From a virus (taxonomy: Duplodnaviria; Caudoviricetes): 28,563 bases of DNA. Of the stretch, positions 866-27,925 are shown piece after piece. A program made the position numbers and the translations under genes. Where the stretch lies: positions 1 to 28,563 of IMG/VR virus record IMGVR_UViG_3300032226_000477. The stretch is one strand, 5' to 3'. Positions within the stretch are counted from its first letter, which is position 1; the number at the start of each line of letters is the position of its first letter. The notes beneath the pieces are model-generated. The model was not told where the DNA came from and made no database searches. It saw nothing but the letters and a program-made list of their open reading frames with translations.

Positions 866-2792
866 AAGCGTTGACGATTTATTGCGGCAATCAATTCAGC
901 CGCTAAAACCAAAAGAAAAGCTATCGCGCAGCGACTGGGCCGAACGTCATTTTCAGGTAACTAAAGGTAGCAGCACTGGCAAATGGAAAACAAGGCCATA
1001 CCAAAGGGAAATTCTTGACGCATGGGACGACCCAAGGATATGGCGCACCTCGGTAATGAAATCATCGCGGGTTGGTGCCACCACCTTGCTAAACATTGAC
1101 GAGTGCTATTCAATTCACTGGGAGCCATGCGATACATGCACCGTGCAGCCGACTACTGGCGATGCCGAAAAATACAGCAGAGACACATTTGACTCCTTAA
1201 TTGAAAACGTAGACGCACTAACAGAGCTATTTTCAAAATGCAAGCACCGCGACGGCACAAACTCAATCCTCGAAAAATACATCAACGGCGCATCGCTAAA
1301 GTTTATTGGCGCCAATAGTCCTAACGGTTTTCGTCGTGTCACCTATCGCATTGTCCGAGCCGATGAAACCAGCGCTTACAAAGCTGGCGGCGCAGGCAAG
1401 GAAGGCGATCAAATCGAGCTACTACTAAACAGAACGATTGACTACCACGATCGACTATTTATTGATTGCAGCACGCCAACGATTGAAGGATTTGATCGCA
1501 TTGAAGATGCGTTCAAATTAGGAGATCAGCGTCATCGCTACCTTCCGTGTCCGCATTGCGGTTGGTACCAAACGCTTTCCGCTGCAGCATTCACCCCAGG
1601 CGCGGACAAAAGCAAGCCGGGTGGTTTTTGGTGGGAACCCGGTAAACCAACAAGCGTAGTTTACATTTGCGAGAGTTGCGATAACCCAATTCAGCATAGC
1701 CAAAAATTTGAAATGGATCTACACGGCGAATGGCGCCCAAGCGCACCGCCGAACATTGACCCAAACGGCAGGGAACACCGCAGCTATCACATCTGGGCGG
1801 GCATATCTTATCAAGCTAACGCAAGCTGGGCTAACATTGTTGCCGAACACGAAAAAAATCAAAACCAACCCGAGAAGGTCCAAGTGTTTATTAACACTTG
1901 GCTTGGTTTGCCCTACCGCGAAGATGCGTCAACACGCTTAGCCGCCGAAGGTTTAATGTCAAGGCGGGATAGCTACGCGAGCGGAGAAGTACCCGATGGT
2001 GTGCTAATGATCTGTATTGGCGTTGATATGCAAGACGATCGTGCGGAAGTTTTTGTTTGGGGATTTGGCCCAGGCAGCTCACCAGACCAAGCGACCGCCG
2101 AGCCGGAAAGGTGGTTAATCAAGCATGACGTAATTAGCTGCAGATACGACACCGCGGAAGTCTACAAACAACTTGACACCTATCTTTTTGATAGCTACTC
2201 CTTAAGTAATGGCTATGGGCTTAAGCCCGCTGTCATGGCAGTTGACTCCGGCGACGGCGAGCACTCTTCGTATGTCTACGAATACGCAAACAACCGCGCC
2301 AATCAAGGCGTCATCGCGACAAAGGGTATGGATCAAATAGGTAAACCGGCAATTAACAACGGAAAGCGCACTCAGTATGATTACAAGGGGCGCCCAAGCA
2401 AAACAAGCGCCCTAGTGTTCCAGGTTGGCACTGACCTTGTTAAAACAATCCTGATGGCACAGCTCAAGCATGGCCTGACATCTGGCGCTGGTGCAATTCA
2501 TTTTCCAAGAGACACAAGTAAAGAGTTTTTTGAGCAACTTGTTTCCGAGCGCCGTCATCACAAAATTGAAAACGGCCAACCCAAAGCGACATGGGTGCGG
2601 AAGCCGGGCATCAAGGCCGAAGCCCTTGACGGAACTGTTTACGCTTATGCAGCATTTCATCACGCAAAGAAAAAATACAATCCCAAAACAATGTGGGCGC
2701 AGCTTGCCGAAGACGCCGCCAGCGGCGGTAAACCTAGGCCAGAAGCATCCCCAGTGGCTTTCAACCTGCTGGAAGGGCAGCAGGTTTATTAG
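843..2792 (+). CDS. terL: Terminase large subunit, lambda gpA family (alternative start ATG 855)
   Basis: Walker A-like VMKSSRVGAT, Walker B IVRADE, STPT motif, CPHCG...CESC, nuclease motifs IGVDMQ and EALDGTVYAYAA. Confidence 0.95.
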   Translation: MIQSMPIRSVDDLLRQSIQPLKPKEKLSRSDWAERHFQVTKGSSTGKWKTRPYQREILDAWDDPRIWRTSVMKSSRVGATTLLNIDECYSIHWEPCDTCTVQPTTGDAEKYSRDTFDSLIENVDALTELFSKCKHRDGTNSILEKYINGASLKFIGANSPNGFRRVTYRIVRADETSAYKAGGAGKEGDQIELLLNRTIDYHDRLFIDCSTPTIEGFDRIEDAFKLGDQRHRYLPCPHCGWYQTLSAAAFTPGADKSKPGGFWWEPGKPTSVVYICESCDNPIQHSQKFEMDLHGEWRPSAPPNIDPNGREHRSYHIWAGISYQANASWANIVAEHEKNQNQPEKVQVFINTWLGLPYREDASTRLAAEGLMSRRDSYASGEVPDGVLMICIGVDMQDDRAEVFVWGFGPGSSPDQATAEPERWLIKHDVISCRYDTAEVYKQLDTYLFDSYSLSNGYGLKPAVMAVDSGDGEHSSYVYEYANNRANQGVIATKGMDQIGKPAINNGKRTQYDYKGRPSKTSALVFQVGTDLVKTILMAQLKHGLTSGAGAIHFPRDTSKEFFEQLVSERRHHKIENGQPKATWVRKPGIKAEALDGTVYAYAAFHHAKKKYNPKTMWAQLAEDAASGGKPRPEASPVAFNLLEGQQVY

Positions 2793-2796
2793 GGGG

Positions 2797-2825
2797 TTGC
2801 GTTCGGGCGGACAGGGGTGTAGGAT
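2797..2825 (+). promoter_or_regulatory. Sigma70-type promoter for the intergenic non-coding RNA
   Basis: TTGCGT (2797-2802), 17-nt spacer, TAGGAT (2820-2825), right after the terL stop; predicted TSS near 2832. Confidence 0.6.
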
Positions 2826-2831
2826 GGGCGC

Positions 2832-3100
2832 AATCCAACGTCGAGCAAAGTAGCGGAACACCGCCAAACGCCGTCTAGGATTTTCGGGAAAGGGAGTTTC
2901 GGCTTCCGAGTACCCTTGAAAGCGCGTGGGCTCCCCGGATACCTTGACATTGGGAGCATCTAGCCCCTCACAACACGCCTGACGACGGCGTAAGCCAGAA
3001 ACCGCTTTTAAGCGGTCGCGTGGAGCTTCCCAAGAGGGGGAATAACTGGAAGCCTAGGGGTATCACACAAAGCCTCCGATTCATCGGGGGCTTTGTGCTA
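2832..3100 (+). ncRNA. Putative ~270-nt structured non-coding RNA containing a hammerhead ribozyme
   Basis: No ATG on + between predicted TSS and terminator. Helices: GCGG/CCGC 2853-2864; GGGAGU-UUCG-GCUUCC 2892-2907 with GAA/AGUA E-loop; GCUCCC/GGGAGC 2930-2957; hammerhead; GCUUCC/GGAAGC 3025-3053. Confidence 0.7.
2967..3025 (+). ncRNA. Type I hammerhead ribozyme, predicted cleavage 3' of C3017 (GUC)
   Basis: Stem I CACGC 2974-2978/GCGUG 3018-3022 (extended by CUC/GAG after an ACAA bulge); core CUGACGA 2979-2985; stem II GGC-GUAA-GCC 2987-2996; GAAA 2998-3001; stem III ACCGCU-UUUA-AGCGGU 3001-3016; C3017. Confidence 0.85.
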
Positions 3101-3102
3101 TT
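3066..3102 (+). terminator. Intrinsic terminator-like hairpin closing the ncRNA unit
   Basis: CACAAAGCCTCCGAT (3066-3080) is complementary to ATCGGGGGCTTTGTG (3083-3097) with one G-U; the U-rich tail is imperfect. Confidence 0.7.
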
Positions 3103-3138
3103 CACCTAGACTAGAATCACCCCACAAGCACGGCACCA

Positions 3139-3702
3139 GTGAGCACGATCCCGTCCCAATTTAGAGCGGGGGATTTTGTTTCCTGGGTTGAAGATGAAGC
3201 CCCGGCGGGGACAACGGCTATCCGCGCCTACCTGCGGACCAATGCGGCCTCAGGGGCGGTCCTAGACGCGACGGCAAACGGCAACGACTGGGCCTTCAGG
3301 GTTTCCGCTGCCACCTCAGCCACCTTGACCGCCGGGACCTACCTGGCGCAGTTTGTGGCGATCGTGGCGACCAACCCGGTCAGCTACCGCGAGGCACGGT
3401 TCACAGTGCTGCCAAGCCTAGCCTTCACTGGCAGTCCAACTGCGATTGAGACAAGAAGTAAGCTAAAGATTCGATACGATGAAATACAGGAAGCAATTCG
3501 GATAGTAACGACCAGCGCTCAAGAATATCAAATTGGCGTTGGTGGTGGTGGTCGCAAAGTTCGCCGCGCTGATTTGCCAGAGCTAAGAAAAGAACGCGAT
3601 GAAATACGCGCTCAATTAACAGCAGAAGAACGCGCCTCGGACCTCGCTAATGGCAGAGGCGATCCCGACGCTCTCTACACTAGGTTCACACCAAGTTATT
3701 GA
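3139..3702 (+). CDS. Head completion / head-tail joining protein, gpW-like C-terminus with extra N-terminal domain
   Basis: Between terL and portal; C-terminal EYQIGVGGGGRKVRRADLPELRKERDEIRAQL resembles gpW. Confidence 0.7.
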   Translation: MSTIPSQFRAGDFVSWVEDEAPAGTTAIRAYLRTNAASGAVLDATANGNDWAFRVSAATSATLTAGTYLAQFVAIVATNPVSYREARFTVLPSLAFTGSPTAIETRSKLKIRYDEIQEAIRIVTTSAQEYQIGVGGGGRKVRRADLPELRKERDEIRAQLTAEERASDLANGRGDPDALYTRFTPSY

Positions 3703-8004: not shown

Positions 8005-8321
8005 TCACCGAAGACCTGGATCTGTTCTTTGCCGATTTTGGCGTCAGCTTTACCGCTGGCGCCATTTCCGGTATGTGCATCAAAGATATGTCAGGTTTTG
8101 GCATTCTTGACGATCGCATCGTAGATCCAGGTCACGTAGTTTTAGTTAAAACATCTGCGTTCAATAATCTTTTTTCAGGCATTAGTGCAACTGTTGCTGG
8201 TCAGCCTTTTTTAATAAAAGATGCCATGCCTGTTGAGGATGGCGCATTTTCACTTGTTACGCTAAAAGGAATTGATCTACCAAGCGCTCCGGTATCAATC
8301 TTGAATGGCGATTTTCTATGA
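8001..8321 (+). CDS. Head-tail connector, gpFII-like, with C-terminal extension ending ILNGDFL
   Basis: EDLDLFFADFGV start and DGAFSLVTL near the end match FII-like head-closure proteins; GTGA/ATGA overlaps with neighbours. Confidence 0.7.
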   Translation: MITEDLDLFFADFGVSFTAGAISGMCIKDMSGFGILDDRIVDPGHVVLVKTSAFNNLFSGISATVAGQPFLIKDAMPVEDGAFSLVTLKGIDLPSAPVSILNGDFL

Positions 8322-11300
8322 CTACCTATCAAACGCAAACTTATAGATTTCGGCAGCTATTTAGCACTTTAGCAGCAATCACAGCCAGTAACCCAGTATT
8401 ACTGGAAGGAGAAAAATGGCAAGAAAAAGATGCAGTTACTGGTTTATTTACTGGTCGCACTAAAACGGGTAAAGATGGCGTAGTCACAGGCACCGCACCC
8501 AATCAGACGATCACCGGCACGGCGTTCAACGATCTGCCGTTTGATCCCGCCGCCGGCGGCGGCGCCACAGACGCGCAGCTTAGGGACCGGGCCACACACA
8601 CCGGCACCCAGCCAGCGAGCACGATCACCGGCCTATCCCCTGCGGCCACCATTGGCAATACTCTAAATTCTATTATTGGCCTGCAGTCAGCCCCTCAAAC
8701 AGGCGCGTTTCTTGTCAAGCAATACTATGTCAATCACAATGAAGCAGCCATAGCGCTGCCATCGCCGCTCGAAGCCGGACCCGGCGGCGGCCCGTTCCAA
8801 TGGGAGCCTGATCTCCCCAGGTCGTTACACGATGGCGGCCTGTTCATCTCGCCGACCGTCCCCTATGACGGAACTAGGGCCAGCCTGGTGAACTTTCTCG
8901 GCAAGGTCGGAGAAACGGCCCCCAACGCTAACGGCGTGTGGCGGCGGGTCTTCTCTGGCAATGTCATGGCGGATTGGTTTGGTTGCGTCAGCAACAGAAT
9001 TGCTGACGACTACCCGTCAATCCAAAAAGCCCTAGACGTTGTGTTCGAGATGAACAGCGTAGAGAGGGTGGGCAAGTGGTTCGTAGCGAAAACAAACGTT
9101 GTGCAAATTGCCGGCAACTGCCGCATCAAAAGATACCTTGAAGTTGGAGCAAGAATGATGCTCCAAGGGAGTGAAAATACTTTGGTCTACCCTGTCCAGG
9201 ATTCTAGTTTTGCCGGGGACTACAACGTAGCCGTCCCCCCCGTTATCTACGTGGATCCAAATTGCGTTTTATATCGACCAAACGACTACAACTGCGCCGT
9301 CGTGCTGAAAGGCGACGCCTCTAAGTTGGATGGAATTGTGGTCGATGGGTATGAGATGACCTTCGGGTCATGGTATCCAATCATCAGGATTGCAACATCC
9401 CCCCTAGGGGTTGGAGGGTCTTACGCATTTAACGGGGAGCTGTATGTCATCGACCCCAACGATCCCAAGCAAAACAAGCCCCTAGAGCTGGAAACGCTTG
9501 TCATACCATCGCACCAATACGGTGATGCCTGGTATGCAGGCTTTCAGTTAAAGGCAATGGGCGGCAATGTTACCGGCATTGGCTCAGGAACTTCCACTTA
9601 TGCGCAAATCACACCCGCCAACCCCTACCAGTGGGATGTTGTAAGCGGCACCATCCCTACCGGGTTTGCCGTATCAAAGTCTGGATGGGTTACCTGTAAC
9701 GCAGCAACAGCTGTGATTGGCAAGCAATTTGTAACGATTCGCGTAGCTGATGCTAGCGGTAGCACAGCGCAGCGAGACCTCGTTCTGGAGGTTACCGGGA
9801 AATACATAGAATTGCCCTTAGTTGGCATTCCTCCCGCTACCATAAATCAAGCCTATAAATATACCTTCAATGTCCTCAACAACGATGGCGTTGCCCATTA
9901 TTGGTGGATAGTTAATGGCCCCGAGGGCCTGGTGATGAACCGTACTACCGGAGAGGTCACCGGCACGCCCGCCGCCGACTCGTTCGGACAGTACACGCTA
10001 AAAGTGGCAATAACAAGCGCCACCAGTACAGCCAACTTTGAGGCCAATACTCTCATTGATGAAATCTTTATAGACTTCACGGTTGAAAATACCGCATACC
10101 CATCATTATATGGCAGCCTTTCAGATGCGGCCGTAGGGGTGGCTTACCAGGGGATCATTTACCCTGTCGGCGGAGTTGGTCCGTTTACCTGGCAGATTGA
10201 CCCTGCTCGTTCCACCGGGAACAACCAGGCCGGGTATCCAACCACAACGTCGCCTGCTCCGGGATTAACCCTTTCGACTGATGGCATCAGAGCGCTCATA
10301 ACAGGAACGCCTACAACGTCTGGGAACTTCTCGCTTTTCCTTATTGGCACTGATTCAACTGGGAAATCGGTAAGTGGGCTTATCAGCTTTTTAGGGAACA
10401 CATGGGCAGTGAGACCACAGCTGAAGACATCCTTGATCTGGAATCTTCCTGTCGCCGTCAAGGGCCAGCCATATTCTTATCAAGTTGAGGCTACTGTACC
10501 AGGCTGCACCTTTAGCGCAAAGGCATTGCCTTCCGGCCTGGCGATCTCCGCCGAAGGCCTCATTTCAGGCACTCCTCTTGGCGGCAGATATGCCAATGGG
10601 GTTGCGTGTGAATGGAGCGTCAAGATGAGCAATTTCACAGTAAGAAATTTTAGGGGCGCAGCAGGCGTCAAAATTGACGGATCAAGCAATGTCCACATTT
10701 TTGAAAACTTCTTTATCAATGCGTGTGATGTAGGAATTTCTTCTGACAATATGTTCGACTCACGGTTACAGAGTTTCTATATCTACAACACAAGAATTGG
10801 CCTGCAAATGAAGGGCGGAACTGCCGCTAATACCTACACTAACGGAAGAATTGAATACATTCACGAGCATGGTGTTACCGCCTTGTTTTCTCCAGACAAT
10901 GTATGGAGCACTGTCTACTGGGATACCTGCGGGTACGCTGCAATAAGCGCTGATCGCTCCGATTACTGGACAATGAGCGGCTGCTTCTTTTTTCGAGGTG
11001 GGCGGCGCGTCCCGCCAAGGGGCAAATACTATATGCCCGATAGTCCCGTGGACATTTCTACTCACATTAAAGCTATTAACTGCAAAGATTGGGTTATCGG
11101 CGCAAATAACATGGTGCGAGGATGCGACAACGGGGGGACAAGTTCAACTTTCTTTAGGAAGTACGAATCAAACGGCAGAAGGCTTTACATCCGGCCTTAT
11201 GCTTCCATTGTCATGGAGTTCTGCAAGGGGTTCAAGGTAACCGGCAATGGGCTAGACGGCTGCACAAGAAAGTCTATCGTCTCAGTAGAAAGCGAATATG

Positions 11301-12796
11301 AATTTGACTACAACGATGCCCTTTTGGGCGGGAACACGGTCCATCGAACGAACCAATTTGAAACCTTCTCGCAGAATGATCAACCCGTCATAAATTTACT
11401 GAAGAACCCTGCCAAGGGTGATTTCACGCCCGAAGGCACCGAGGACAATATAGACACTTATTTTCCTAACAATGTGCTTTTGCTTCAAGGAAACGAGTTT
11501 GCCGATAGAAGCGCAAGGGGCTTAACCGTAAACAATACAAACGTCACAATCAACACATCTGTTTACAAGTTTGGTACGGGCAGCTTCTTTTTTAATGGAA
11601 CAAACGCATTGCTGACTGTGGGTGTAGCTGACAACAACAACGTCGCTGCTCCGTTTTATTTTGGCACAGATGATCTGACTTTAGAGTTTTTGGTTCATCC
11701 GCTTAGGAACAATGTAAGTCAAACCCTGATTGACTTTGGGGCTACGTCTGAATCTGCCCCATTCGCGCTCATTCTTGACGCAAATGGAAGGCTAGCGCTA
11801 GCCAGGAATCGCAGCACAGGCGGACAAGCCATAGATGCCACCAGTACGCGCGTCATCCCGATAAATGCCTTCACTGAAATCCGTATGACTATAACCAGAG
11901 GTGTGGCTAGAGTCTATATTGATACTACCCTGGAGCTGACCATTTCGTTTGCCGGAAGGTTCATCATATCCGGGTTTAATAGACCAATCATGGGTCGCGG
12001 TGGGTTTACGGGGGCAACCGACTTTTTTCAGGGATACATGCAGCAGATTAGGATAACTAAACCTGCTTCCAGGTATGGGCAGCTATCAGCGCTGAGGCCG
12101 CAAACTCGCGCATTCAGCATTGTAAATCTTGGTTCCCTGCCGCCGGAAACCCTTGTGTATTCCCCTGCTGCTGCGGAAACGGAATTTTTCTTTGCCGACC
12201 GATCTAATTCTATTAAGCTGGGCCCCAGCTCCTCCATTCAGAAGCCAATCTATGTAACCAGAAGATCAAAGAACGACATCGTTACCGATCGAAGGGCGGG
12301 CCTGGGCTCCTACAGTGCGGGCCAGGTGAACCCGTCCTACTATATTTATCGATTTCAAAAGGCAGCTGAGACGGGGGTTACGGCCTACACATTCCAGACC
12401 TGTGAGTTCAGGGCATGGGCCGCACGGCCGGGCTACCCAGAGGAGCTGGATAGGATCCGAGGGAAAAAACTGCTCTTATGTCTTTGGGCAAGGTCTGCCA
12501 AGAAGAACTCAGTATCTTTGTTTACGCAGTTCTACGCCGGAACGAGCGGCAACAATTACAGGGTTGACGGGGGCTTTCACACTAAGTTCAACGTGCCTCC
12601 ATTCTGGAGAAAATATACATTCACCATTGAAGCCCCAGACCTGGATCTAACCCTCGTTGATCCATACACTTCCAATGCCTTATTAAAGTTCTACCTCGAC
12701 GACAAGTCGCAGACCTATGACGTGGAATTTGGGGCGATGTTTTTGTACGAAGATGATGGGAAGTTTGGGTTTACCCCAATTTATGACCAACCATGA
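8318..12796 (+). CDS. Large multidomain fibre/spike: Mtd_N-like N-terminus, pectate-lyase-like beta-helix, putative Ig repeats, LamG domain, CBM-like C-terminus
   Basis: NPVLLEGE...KTGKDG...AFNDLPF (Mtd_N-like); LRDRATHTGTQPASTITGL fibre repeat; WFGC...DDYPSIQKALD; about four Ig-like repeats (e.g. LPSGLAISAEGLISGTP); KFGTGSFFFNG...DLTLEFLV...GYMQQIRIT (LamG). Confidence 0.8.
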   Translation: MTTYQTQTYRFRQLFSTLAAITASNPVLLEGEKWQEKDAVTGLFTGRTKTGKDGVVTGTAPNQTITGTAFNDLPFDPAAGGGATDAQLRDRATHTGTQPASTITGLSPAATIGNTLNSIIGLQSAPQTGAFLVKQYYVNHNEAAIALPSPLEAGPGGGPFQWEPDLPRSLHDGGLFISPTVPYDGTRASLVNFLGKVGETAPNANGVWRRVFSGNVMADWFGCVSNRIADDYPSIQKALDVVFEMNSVERVGKWFVAKTNVVQIAGNCRIKRYLEVGARMMLQGSENTLVYPVQDSSFAGDYNVAVPPVIYVDPNCVLYRPNDYNCAVVLKGDASKLDGIVVDGYEMTFGSWYPIIRIATSPLGVGGSYAFNGELYVIDPNDPKQNKPLELETLVIPSHQYGDAWYAGFQLKAMGGNVTGIGSGTSTYAQITPANPYQWDVVSGTIPTGFAVSKSGWVTCNAATAVIGKQFVTIRVADASGSTAQRDLVLEVTGKYIELPLVGIPPATINQAYKYTFNVLNNDGVAHYWWIVNGPEGLVMNRTTGEVTGTPAADSFGQYTLKVAITSATSTANFEANTLIDEIFIDFTVENTAYPSLYGSLSDAAVGVAYQGIIYPVGGVGPFTWQIDPARSTGNNQAGYPTTTSPAPGLTLSTDGIRALITGTPTTSGNFSLFLIGTDSTGKSVSGLISFLGNTWAVRPQLKTSLIWNLPVAVKGQPYSYQVEATVPGCTFSAKALPSGLAISAEGLISGTPLGGRYANGVACEWSVKMSNFTVRNFRGAAGVKIDGSSNVHIFENFFINACDVGISSDNMFDSRLQSFYIYNTRIGLQMKGGTAANTYTNGRIEYIHEHGVTALFSPDNVWSTVYWDTCGYAAISADRSDYWTMSGCFFFRGGRRVPPRGKYYMPDSPVDISTHIKAINCKDWVIGANNMVRGCDNGGTSSTFFRKYESNGRRLYIRPYASIVMEFCKGFKVTGNGLDGCTRKSIVSVESEYEFDYNDALLGGNTVHRTNQFETFSQNDQPVINLLKNPAKGDFTPEGTEDNIDTYFPNNVLLLQGNEFADRSARGLTVNNTNVTINTSVYKFGTGSFFFNGTNALLTVGVADNNNVAAPFYFGTDDLTLEFLVHPLRNNVSQTLIDFGATSESAPFALILDANGRLALARNRSTGGQAIDATSTRVIPINAFTEIRMTITRGVARVYIDTTLELTISFAGRFIISGFNRPIMGRGGFTGATDFFQGYMQQIRITKPASRYGQLSALRPQTRAFSIVNLGSLPPETLVYSPAAAETEFFFADRSNSIKLGPSSSIQKPIYVTRRSKNDIVTDRRAGLGSYSAGQVNPSYYIYRFQKAAETGVTAYTFQTCEFRAWAARPGYPEELDRIRGKKLLLCLWARSAKKNSVSLFTQFYAGTSGNNYRVDGGFHTKFNVPPFWRKYTFTIEAPDLDLTLVDPYTSNALLKFYLDDKSQTYDVEFGAMFLYEDDGKFGFTPIYDQP

Positions 12797-14775: not shown

Positions 14776-15081
14776 ATGTTCAAAAAGCAAACTGGCGGCT
14801 CCTACTGGTGGCCTGGTGTAATCAGAACCCCCAGTGAAGCCACTGAAGGCGAATTTGACGAAGCGCAGGTCAGGCTGAAAATTAAGCGCATTGGCTTCAA
14901 GCAAAGCCAAGCGTATTCCGATGACAAAGAACTTCTCAGGAATGTCATCGTCGGCTGGTCCGAGATTGAAGAAGAGTTTAGCCCTGAAAAACTGGAAGAG
15001 TACCTTGACGATCAGTTTATTGGGGCCTCGTTTGGCCGCATCTATTTTGATGCGCTGCAAAAAGCCAGAACGGGAAACTAA
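14776..15081 (+). CDS. Tail assembly chaperone (gpG-like)
   Basis: Between tail tube and tape measure; ends in slippery G GGA AAC TAA. Confidence 0.8.
   Translation: MFKKQTGGSYWWPGVIRTPSEATEGEFDEAQVRLKIKRIGFKQSQAYSDDKELLRNVIVGWSEIEEEFSPEKLEEYLDDQFIGASFGRIYFDALQKARTGN
15072..15078 (+). other. Programmed -1 ribosomal frameshift site GGGAAAC
   Basis: X XXY YYZ in the gpG frame; the -1 frame is open from 15072 into ORF 15141..15422. Confidence 0.85.
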
Positions 15082-15422
15082 CGGACTTCGTTGAGCTTTG
15101 CCTTTCCGGCGGCGGCAAGGACGACGGGCTCAGCGAAGACATGAAGGTGCTGGGTATAAGCAAGATTGTTTTACCTAGATCCGCTGATGCCGAGCCCCAG
15201 GGGCCGCTAGAGGTATGGGATGATTGCTGGGAATCAGCAATGATGTTCCTGCGCCTCGGTCCTGCCGACTGGGTTTACGCAGGCATGGGATCTTGCGTTG
15301 GCATTAACAAGCAAACCCTCGAATGGTACATGAACGTGTACGCATCCGAAAACAAGCGCGAAATGCTTGACGATCTTCAGATTATGGAACGCCACGCCGT
15401 AAAGCTGATGAATAAGTCTTGA
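15078..15422 (+). CDS. gpT-like frameshift extension of the tail chaperone (DUF1799-like)
   Basis: EVWDDCWESAMMFLRL...W...G...GI...DDLQIMERHAV; -1 frame is stop-free from the slippery site. Confidence 0.75.
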   Translation, partial: LTDFVELCLSGGGKDDGLSEDMKVLGISKIVLPRSADAEPQGPLEVWDDCWESAMMFLRLGPADWVYAGMGSCVGINKQTLEWYMNVYASENKREMLDDLQIMERHAVKLMNKS

Positions 15423-27532: not shown

Positions 27533-27925
27533 TTGCACACCATCGAAGGGTCCGAGCTTGTGTCAAAACGTGTTACTAAGCATCGGTTCCGGCGAGCAAT
27601 TATCAACGCTTGGGACAAGTGCTGCGCCTACTGTGGATACAAGCCAAGCAGCATAACACTAGATCACGTAACTCCCAAGGCAAAGGGTGGAACTACTCAA
27701 TGGTCTAATTTGGTCCCAGCTTGCACTTCATGCAATGGATCTAAAGGGCATTCTGATGTATGGGACTGGTATCAGTTGCAGTTATTTTACTGTGCAGCTA
27801 GGGAGCAAAAGATCAGGGATTGGCTGACTAACGAAAAACCCCCGCTGGTTGGCGAGGGTTGCAAGGTTGACGGAGGGGTTGATCAGGCGGCAGCTGTTTC
27901 AGTCTCGGCAGCGTCGTCTTCGTAG
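27533..27925 (+). CDS. HNH endonuclease
   Basis: CAYCG...TLDHVTPKAKGG...NLVPACTSCNGSKG; TTG start is uncertain. Confidence 0.88.
   Translation: MHTIEGSELVSKRVTKHRFRRAIINAWDKCCAYCGYKPSSITLDHVTPKAKGGTTQWSNLVPACTSCNGSKGHSDVWDWYQLQLFYCAAREQKIRDWLTNEKPPLVGEGCKVDGGVDQAAAVSVSAASSS
27834..27860 (-). terminator. Probable intrinsic terminator for the AbrB-like gene
   Basis: AACCC-C-CGC...GCG-A-GGGTT imperfect hairpin with an A5 run on + (U-tract on -), about 22 nt past the AbrB stop. Confidence 0.5.

Follow-up and report, generated by a model that had tools for sequence, protein, structure and literature searches.

A conserved two-halved phage RNA with two predicted pseudoknots and a nested candidate hammerhead ribozyme

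Positions 2924-3064 of the DNA analysed here (the window, 28 563 nt, a 28.6-kb virus-record fragment carrying a lambdoid head-tail operon) hold what is, judged by conservation and covariation, a conserved two-halved, doubly pseudoknotted phage RNA, at whose joint a predicted hammerhead ribozyme is nested. We refer to the RNA that encloses the ribozyme as the host RNA. Its family offers a handle on two questions, namely the purpose of phage hammerheads and the role of the non-tRNA RNAs in phage tRNA arrays.

A type I hammerhead is predicted at 2974-3022 from sequence and family conservation (this and all other features given below lie on the + strand). Here we found the core CUGAnGA and GAAA (2979-2985 and 2998-3001), an NUH triplet, an open stem I of 5 bp (2974-2978/3018-3022), stem II (2987-2989/2994-2996) and stem III (3001-3006/3011-3016), with the predicted cut between 3017 and 3018, after the GUC triplet at 3015-3017. 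The prediction lies below Rfam thresholds, the hammerhead of the window giving no match at the gathering score nor at E ≤ 10, and searches for near-identical hammerheads returned none in viral contigs and none in metagenome contigs. The usual 10.1-11.1 pair (mostly G-C) is missing in the window, where stem II has a C10.1-A11.1 mismatch; mismatches at this place occur elsewhere in the family (U-U in 15 and A-A in 13 of 79 linear members), and active hammerheads with weak or mismatched 10.1-11.1 pairs are reported in the available text of PMC3088659. The core is standard in 146 of 150 members, a count obtained with a search expression that itself required a near-standard core, and the triplet is GUC or GUA in 133 of 150. 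Pair 1.1-2.1 covaries (n = 218: G-C 144, C-G 58, U-A 7, A-U 1, G-U 6, unpaired 2), and together with the standard core this indicates that the predicted hammerhead is under selection. Loop II is very variable across members, and no contact between stem I and stem II was identified.

By core and stems, the predicted hammerhead belongs with the phage type I hammerheads. It resembles the phage and prophage examples in the available text of Perreault et al. (2011; PMC3088659; Rfam clan CL00010) in its core, three stems, GUC triplet, open stem I and short stem II, but differs from those described there in that its stem I has only 5 bp, the 3' strand of which is a motif of a larger RNA, in that no stem I-loop II pseudoknot is evident in the window, and in its C10.1-A11.1 mismatch and sub-threshold Rfam score. 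In other phage contigs (L012, L042, L084/L085, L088 and L109), three to five ordinary type I hammerheads stand in a row, ∼200-400 nt apart and each preceding a short gene; they are unrelated to the host RNA. A subfamily (L147, L150, L163, L168, L200, L217, L224, L240, L263 and L271) has an extended stem III of 40-60 nt, with recurring internal motifs.

At five loci from a hammerhead pattern scan, the common sequence extended far beyond the ribozyme. Each half of this larger RNA begins with an N-C-G-Y-G-G motif, followed by a 6-bp hairpin (PA or PC) with a pseudoknot strand in its loop, then a brief conserved junction and finally a tail; the tails are swapped, each pairing into the loop of the other half (PB and PD). 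In the window, the half-1 motif N-C-G-U-G-G (2924-2929) leads into helix PA (2930-2957, pairing 2930-2935 with 2952-2957), supported by covariation, whose loop holds the PD 5' strand (2938-2944); the conserved AUCURG junction and the PB 5' strand (2964-2969) then occupy 2958-2969, as read from conservation and covariation. The half-2 motif N-C-G-Y-G-G-A (3018-3024), which would begin with a 5'-OH end after the predicted cut and whose bases 3018-3022 are borrowed by the hammerhead as the 3' strand of stem I, leads into helix PC (3025-3053, pairing 3025-3030 with 3048-3053), with the PB 3' strand (3034-3039) and the conserved GAAUAACU (3040-3047) in its loop. The CUAG junction and the PD 3' strand (3058-3064), which pairs into the PA loop, complete the RNA at 3054-3064. 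In linear and circularly permuted forms alike, the predicted cut adjoins the second motif on its 5' side.

Members without a hammerhead provide evidence for this architecture. In 14 such members, picked by hand, 96.2 % of cells were paired and 18 of 26 pairs changed on both sides, a level reached by none of 500 shuffles, and a model from hammerhead-less members matched window positions 2924-3067 at E = 7 × 10−11. The top mutual-information pairs over 205 members were those of PA, PB and PC; the parser demanded that PB and PC be at least 5/6 paired, which inflates the counts for these two, whereas PD was not required and formed 6/6 pairs in 89 of 92 members compared with 11 % of cross pairs. 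A tertiary pair across the halves, G2928-C3046, is G-C in 249, U-A in 35 and A-C in 1 of 285 members; for the mirror pair, involving G5 of the second motif, the lone real variant found was uncompensated. The domain between the upstream segment discussed below and the ribozyme had previously been cast as a sensor, a role at odds with its being half of a conserved RNA that also occurs where there is no hammerhead.

The host RNA matched no family in Rfam 15, the only matches being to tRNA, weak ones to hammerheads and sub-threshold ones overlapping tRNA. The theta/HDV-like topology is a nested P1-P2-P3-P1.1-P4 with a catalytic C in J4/2; the helix order PA-PD-PB-PC with swapped tails is not of this kind, and eight host-RNA loci gave no Rfam match to theta/HDV-like ribozymes at E ≤ 1. 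Pistol, hatchet, glmS and group I cores were likewise set aside, having no Rfam match and a different helix order, as was a tRNA-like CCA 3' end, since the tails are variable and in many cases form part of a closing stem.

We identified at least 302 non-redundant members, of which 272 are linear (192 with and 80 without a hammerhead) and 30 circularly permuted; a hammerhead stands at the 5' end in 26 of the permuted members, so that 218 of the 302 parsed carry one. As the hammerhead is absent or decayed in 80 of the 272 linear members, the nick would not always be needed. Among the matches listed for a 3'-half pattern, 112 of 120 viral, 28 of 30 genome and 113 of 119 metagenome sequences parsed as host RNA, and a variant viral pattern, in which the second motif does not start with G, likewise gave 112 of 120 among those listed; one further pattern scan, whose five matches (5/5) were due to chance, was dropped. 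The host RNA is widespread, occurring in phages and prophages of many bacterial groups: named genomes that contain it include Proteobacteria, Firmicutes, Actinobacteria, Chloroflexi, Bacteroidota and Patescibacteria bins. Unannotated copies are present in phages Constance, Gaia, Mwe-JY26 and SDFMU_EhYP, and the RNA is thus available from culturable phages and small enough to assay and solve. In phage Constance, annotated gene 68 overlaps the host RNA and may be spurious. Two further observations concern copy number and source: in L153/L192 the RNA lies at both contig ends and a further copy starts directly after the first, reflecting either a tandem copy or an assembly overlap, and a second record from sequencing run X2, aligning to window positions 3015-3055, is a permuted member from another phage in the same sample.

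The two motifs are near copies of each other. As the earlier note had pointed out, GCGUG at 2924-2928 equals 3018-3022, the 3' strand of stem I, and this duplication is far beyond chance. The first base of the half-1 motif is tied by identity to position 3018: the two are the same letter in 288 of 302 members, or 276 of 285 after 17 parse failures were dropped. In members whose second motif starts with a base other than G, parsed without scoring that base (the non-G set), the first bases are identical in 90 of 96 (C/C 74, U/U 14, A/A 2). The rule holds in every subtype, including all 46 members that lack a hammerhead and have linkers of ≤ 5 nt; given that these have no stem I, the duplicate appears to be selected, and not for the sake of the hammerhead. 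On a tree made without the two columns, which rests on about 95 columns and is noisy, joint change is seen in 13.5 of 14 independent pairs and the opposite in none (p about 1 × 10−4), and for short-linker members alone five of five agree (p = 0.06). Position 4 of the motifs is U/U in 174, U/C in 96, C/U in 15 and C/C in none of 285 members (Fisher p = 0.003 for the absence of C/C, ignoring kinship).

None of the columns among the 285 members is complementary to the first base, and a guide in cis was thus not found. The simplest reading of the identity would be that the two strands touch directly, in parallel, on a two-fold axis; equal recognition of both motifs by a symmetric partner fits too. 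In 114 of 260 members the first motif lies beside or within a closing stem, which accords less well with a free strand. Covariation towards the same base, not the complementary one, is rare in RNA and makes a sharp structural prediction.

It had also been suggested that the GCGUG copy competes for the stem I 5' strand, CACGC. The potential for this is conserved, as, of the 68 hammerhead members of the non-G set, 54 allow the 5' strand at least four pairs with the first motif and 55 with the second, leaving either copy pairable in most members; in the computed folds, however, the swapped helix has a probability of ≤ 0.006 at all lengths folded and lies 2.8-8.4 kcal/mol above the hammerhead fold. 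An allosteric ribozyme could be built on such pairing, with the host RNA sensing a ligand or protein and toggling stem I between the motif copies, the first copy giving the off state. The weak 10.1-11.1 pairs of many of the hammerheads would suit such a device, as would possible regulation of the slow hammerheads of phages, suggested in the available text of Perreault et al. (PMC3088659). We nevertheless regard it as decidedly unlikely, in view of the unfavourable swapped helix, the identity in all 46 short-linker members without stem I and the finding of no regulated downstream gene family among 89 loci.

Upstream of the host RNA, 2868-2875 is the exact reverse complement of 2984-2991, which takes in G8, A9, position 10.1, the 5' strand of stem II and two loop bases, and 2877-2879 can pair with 2978-2980 across a 1 × 3 loop; on recomputation, all coordinates in the earlier note proved correct. 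The complement had been taken for an evolved switch that masks the ribozyme core. From shuffles, homologues and related contigs we conclude that it is very probably incidental, a chance pairing within a replaceable leader. Within 2826-3110, only one Watson-Crick helix is longer than the 8-bp match. In 5000 dinucleotide shuffles of 2832-2923, a match of at least 8 bp arose with P = 0.094 against the whole hammerhead and P = 0.021 against core plus stem II, a target picked after the fact, and 8 bp was also reached by 17 of 305 other 92-nt tiles of the window. Of the 133 other linear members with a hammerhead, 129 had 92 nt of upstream DNA, and in these the longest upstream complement to their own core averaged 4.98 bp compared with 4.96 bp in cross pairs, with matches of at least 8 bp in 3 of 129 compared with 1.6 % of 3198 cross pairs. 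Complementarity at the cross-pair level speaks against an evolved switch, and an upstream duplex at least as stable as that of the window occurred in 22 % of the 129.

Close relatives of the window sequence were obtained as single contigs (depth 2.8-5.5) from four runs, including X2 and X3 (both of the same study as the possible source run of the window), X4 and X6, and aligned to 2700-3200. Positions 2974-3001 are unchanged in all four. The X2 contig has the same terminase flank, matching 2700-2795, and is near-identical over 2875-3054, whilst 83 other letters, known only as unlike, replace 2796-2874; this observation comes from a single contig of depth 5.5. The X4 contig is unlike the window upstream of 2920, where its match begins, and ceases to match at the same insertion flank. 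A long leader such as that of the window is optional. At 2890-2935 a long leader hairpin is predicted that would invade helix PA; X2 retains it with three changes, and X4 lacks it.

The earlier note had further proposed two mutually exclusive folds. This stood in part, since in ViennaRNA folds the leader helix is populated in nascent prefixes, with probabilities of 0.74, 0.20, 0.20, 0.78 and 0.73 in those ending at 2992, 3000, 3017, 3023 and 3040, but falls to 0.07 at 3066 and at 3100, the full length. It is the minimum free energy structure of prefixes 2832-3023 and 2832-3040, at 2.6 and 1.8 kcal/mol below the hammerhead fold. In the full-length RNA the top predicted competitor is a local hairpin at 2975-2991 (0.79), in which the 5' strand of stem I pairs with stem II/loop II. 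These folds are pseudoknot-free, and those starting at 2920 were compared by constrained energies only; as pseudoknots are omitted and the covarying helix PA is missed (∼0.01), the folding models describe this RNA poorly. Given the nascent population of 0.2-0.8, the leader helix may incidentally slow the folding of this variant. That 2868-2875 is a functional, lineage-specific off-switch or timer of this hammerhead, as the exact 8-bp match across G8/A9, the predicted 0.74-0.78 at some nascent lengths and the p of 0.02 on the narrowest target might suggest, is highly improbable: the leader is replaced in X2 and X4 above an unchanged core, the 129 homologues show no enrichment and in 22 % an equally or more stable duplex, the complete RNA is dominated by the hairpin at 2975-2991, and the proposal depends on a transcription start known only as predicted.

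Within the operon, the RNA lies between the terminase large subunit gene gpA (843-2792; PHROG 15; PF05876, PF20454) and the head-tail joining protein gene (3139-3702; PHROG 5774, PHROG 118). From the terminase stop to the flank, the window has a gap of 312 nt (2793-3104) compared with 1-3 nt in four relatives with 84-86 % identical TerL (L002-L005), and a fifth (L006, TerL 72 %) carries a C5 DNA methylase gene (PF00145, 3283-4041) at the same terminase/head-tail site; from the gap and this gene we take the stretch to be an inserted cassette at a passenger-taking site. The methylase gene has its own promoter-like sequence, and the site appears to be an insertion hot spot. A search with the model built from hammerhead-less members (R1) found zero copies of the host RNA in L002-L008. 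A weak, sigma70-like promoter candidate at 2797-2825 (read by eye; predicted start ∼2832) was not called by the promoter scan and falls within the stretch replaced in X2. At the other end, a strong predicted hairpin at 3066-3097 may be a terminator or give 3' protection; it has no U-tail, the terminator scan made no call, and two of its stem bases are changed in X4 and X6. The leader segment 2874-2879 is a 6-nt complement of the insertion-site flank 3105-3110. The window contains no tRNA, its insert had no blastn match in phage records, a plasmid search had no match, and a search with the head-tail protein gave no loci.

A selfish mobile RNA unit, spreading via an RNA or tandem-repeat intermediate without benefit to the phage, might show what is seen here: clean insertion where a methylase gene can also settle, circularly permuted forms and a patchy distribution. 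We consider such a unit very unlikely, as each unit has a single hammerhead or, in many cases, none, the 89 loci offer no reverse transcriptase or integrase as partner, plasmids gave no match, and the placement in tRNA arrays is tight.

A same-strand tRNA lies within 300 nt of 58 of 206 members and an opposite-strand tRNA near none, in flanks often only 300-400 nt long. Of 27 linear members lying ≤ 30 nt behind a tRNA, 16 start 0-1 nt past its called end, and in 14 of 15 re-measured abutting cases, covering nine isotypes, exactly one base separates the discriminator from the start; between neighbouring tRNAs, 3 of 166 gaps are of 1 nt. Abutting members mostly lack the hammerhead (12 of 15, compared with 41 of 172 others; p = 2 × 10−5). 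In phage Constance, the RNA is directly preceded by an unannotated tRNA-like sequence that ends one base past its discriminator (L292, 1440-1500). Selection for C74 after the discriminator was considered and dropped, the frequency (64 of 75) being at baseline (p = 0.37). In 19 of 256 linear members (12 with at least 5/6 matches), the first motif is preceded at 6 nt by a −10-like box; a spacing of 4 nt forms a second peak (14), all other offsets give 0-10, and some members are kin. Transcription from the box at 6 nt would leave no leader. The 5' end thus tends to fall at a motif, via promoter, tRNA processing or hammerhead. Small stable non-tRNA RNAs processed from phage tRNA arrays are exemplified by rnaC and rnaD of T4; no T4 record appeared when three members were compared by blastn with 50 697 phage records.

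These starts raise the possibility that the host domain is a ribozyme in its own right and acts on the bond preceding the first motif, either trimming tRNA 3' trailers, as has been proposed for theta ribozymes, or transferring strands between identical junctions (for background on RNase Z, see the available part of PMC7479834). The one-base spacing and the shortage of hammerheads in abutting members would agree with this, as would the many invariant unpaired bases and the two pseudoknots, and identity at the two junction bases could reflect one pocket used twice. We judge it unlikely all the same: the C after the discriminator is at baseline, transcription predicted to start on the first motif would leave nothing to cut, a tRNA within 300 nt is missing from 148 of 206 members (in flanks that are often short), none of the columns shows the covariation with the first base expected of a pocket, and a hammerhead at the twin site would be redundant.

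We lean towards a stand-alone small RNA, constitutively nicked by its own hammerhead, that acts in trans as a symmetric binder or decoy. Such an RNA would be made like a tRNA gene product and would fold with its halves clamped, and its short stem I kept in place, by PB and PD; the hammerhead would then cut and the 4-5-bp stem I open, freeing a 5'-OH N-C-G strand to dock on its twin across the two-fold axis, most simply through parallel like-with-like pairs. Once nicked, the compact, symmetric RNA would bind a host protein or small ligand in trans or serve as a decoy for it. A constitutive maturation nick between 3017 and 3018 is reasonably probable, and the trans-acting binder role, the weakest step, is tentative. 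The neighbouring genes, among which no partner protein emerged (the largest common neighbour family reaches 6 of 89 loci, with no consistent regulated downstream gene), and the same-strand tRNA neighbours were counted in favour of the trans-acting role. A more novel reading, which we hold to be somewhat unlikely, is a new class of natural RNA, activated by its nested hammerhead, with parallel like-with-like pairs joining its halves on a two-fold axis, that serves as a tRNA-3'-end ribozyme or as a decoy for a symmetric host defence protein or signal.

Like-with-like pairing has a precedent in parallel homo-paired DNA duplexes with CGA/CGGA motifs (available text of PMC4330391), where C-C+, G-G, A-A and U-U pairs of this type would explain the N-C-G identity; that precedent, unlike the contact we infer within the host RNA, consists only of DNA crystals of separate strands. 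Amongst phage RNAs, the theta (HDV-like) ribozymes in the available text of Kienbeck et al. (2024; PMC10879173) share occurrence in phages, a double pseudoknot and, in a subset, a start at a tRNA 3' end. The likeness is one of placement, the host RNA having a different helix order, two-fold symmetry and a nested hammerhead, and abutting tRNA in 16 of 206 members compared with 58 % of theta ribozymes reported there as tRNA-associated. GOLLD and ROOL, as covered in the available part of 10.1101/2024.12.08.627333, are likewise pseudoknotted phage or prophage RNAs of function not known, often near tRNA islands, and for ROOL no protein partner is known according to that text; in contrast to their several hundred nucleotides, the host RNA has a core of about 95 nt, no Rfam match and a hammerhead. 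Within the available parts of the open-licence literature (PMC10085705 among the sources) we found no description of the host RNA, and a motif search of the Fremin supplements returned nothing in six of nine files of 2023 (PMC10690425) and eight of ten of 2021 (PMC8040213). It may stand as an unnamed candidate in the large supplementary files of Fremin 2023/2021 or Eckert 2023. As far as sequence comparison can tell, the host RNA is uncatalogued, no catalogue searched listing it, whilst the hammerhead itself is of a known kind.

Three further features of the window were observed outside the cassette. A 1492-aa ORF with short tail-fibre-like matches (8318-12796) occupies an unusual place between the head genes and the tail tube region, and an HNH endonuclease ORF (27533-27925) follows the endolysin. 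At 15072-15083, a slippery-looking GGGAAAC closely precedes the stop codon of the first ORF for a tail assembly chaperone and is followed by a second ORF at 15141-15422, an arrangement reminiscent of the lambda G/GT frameshift.
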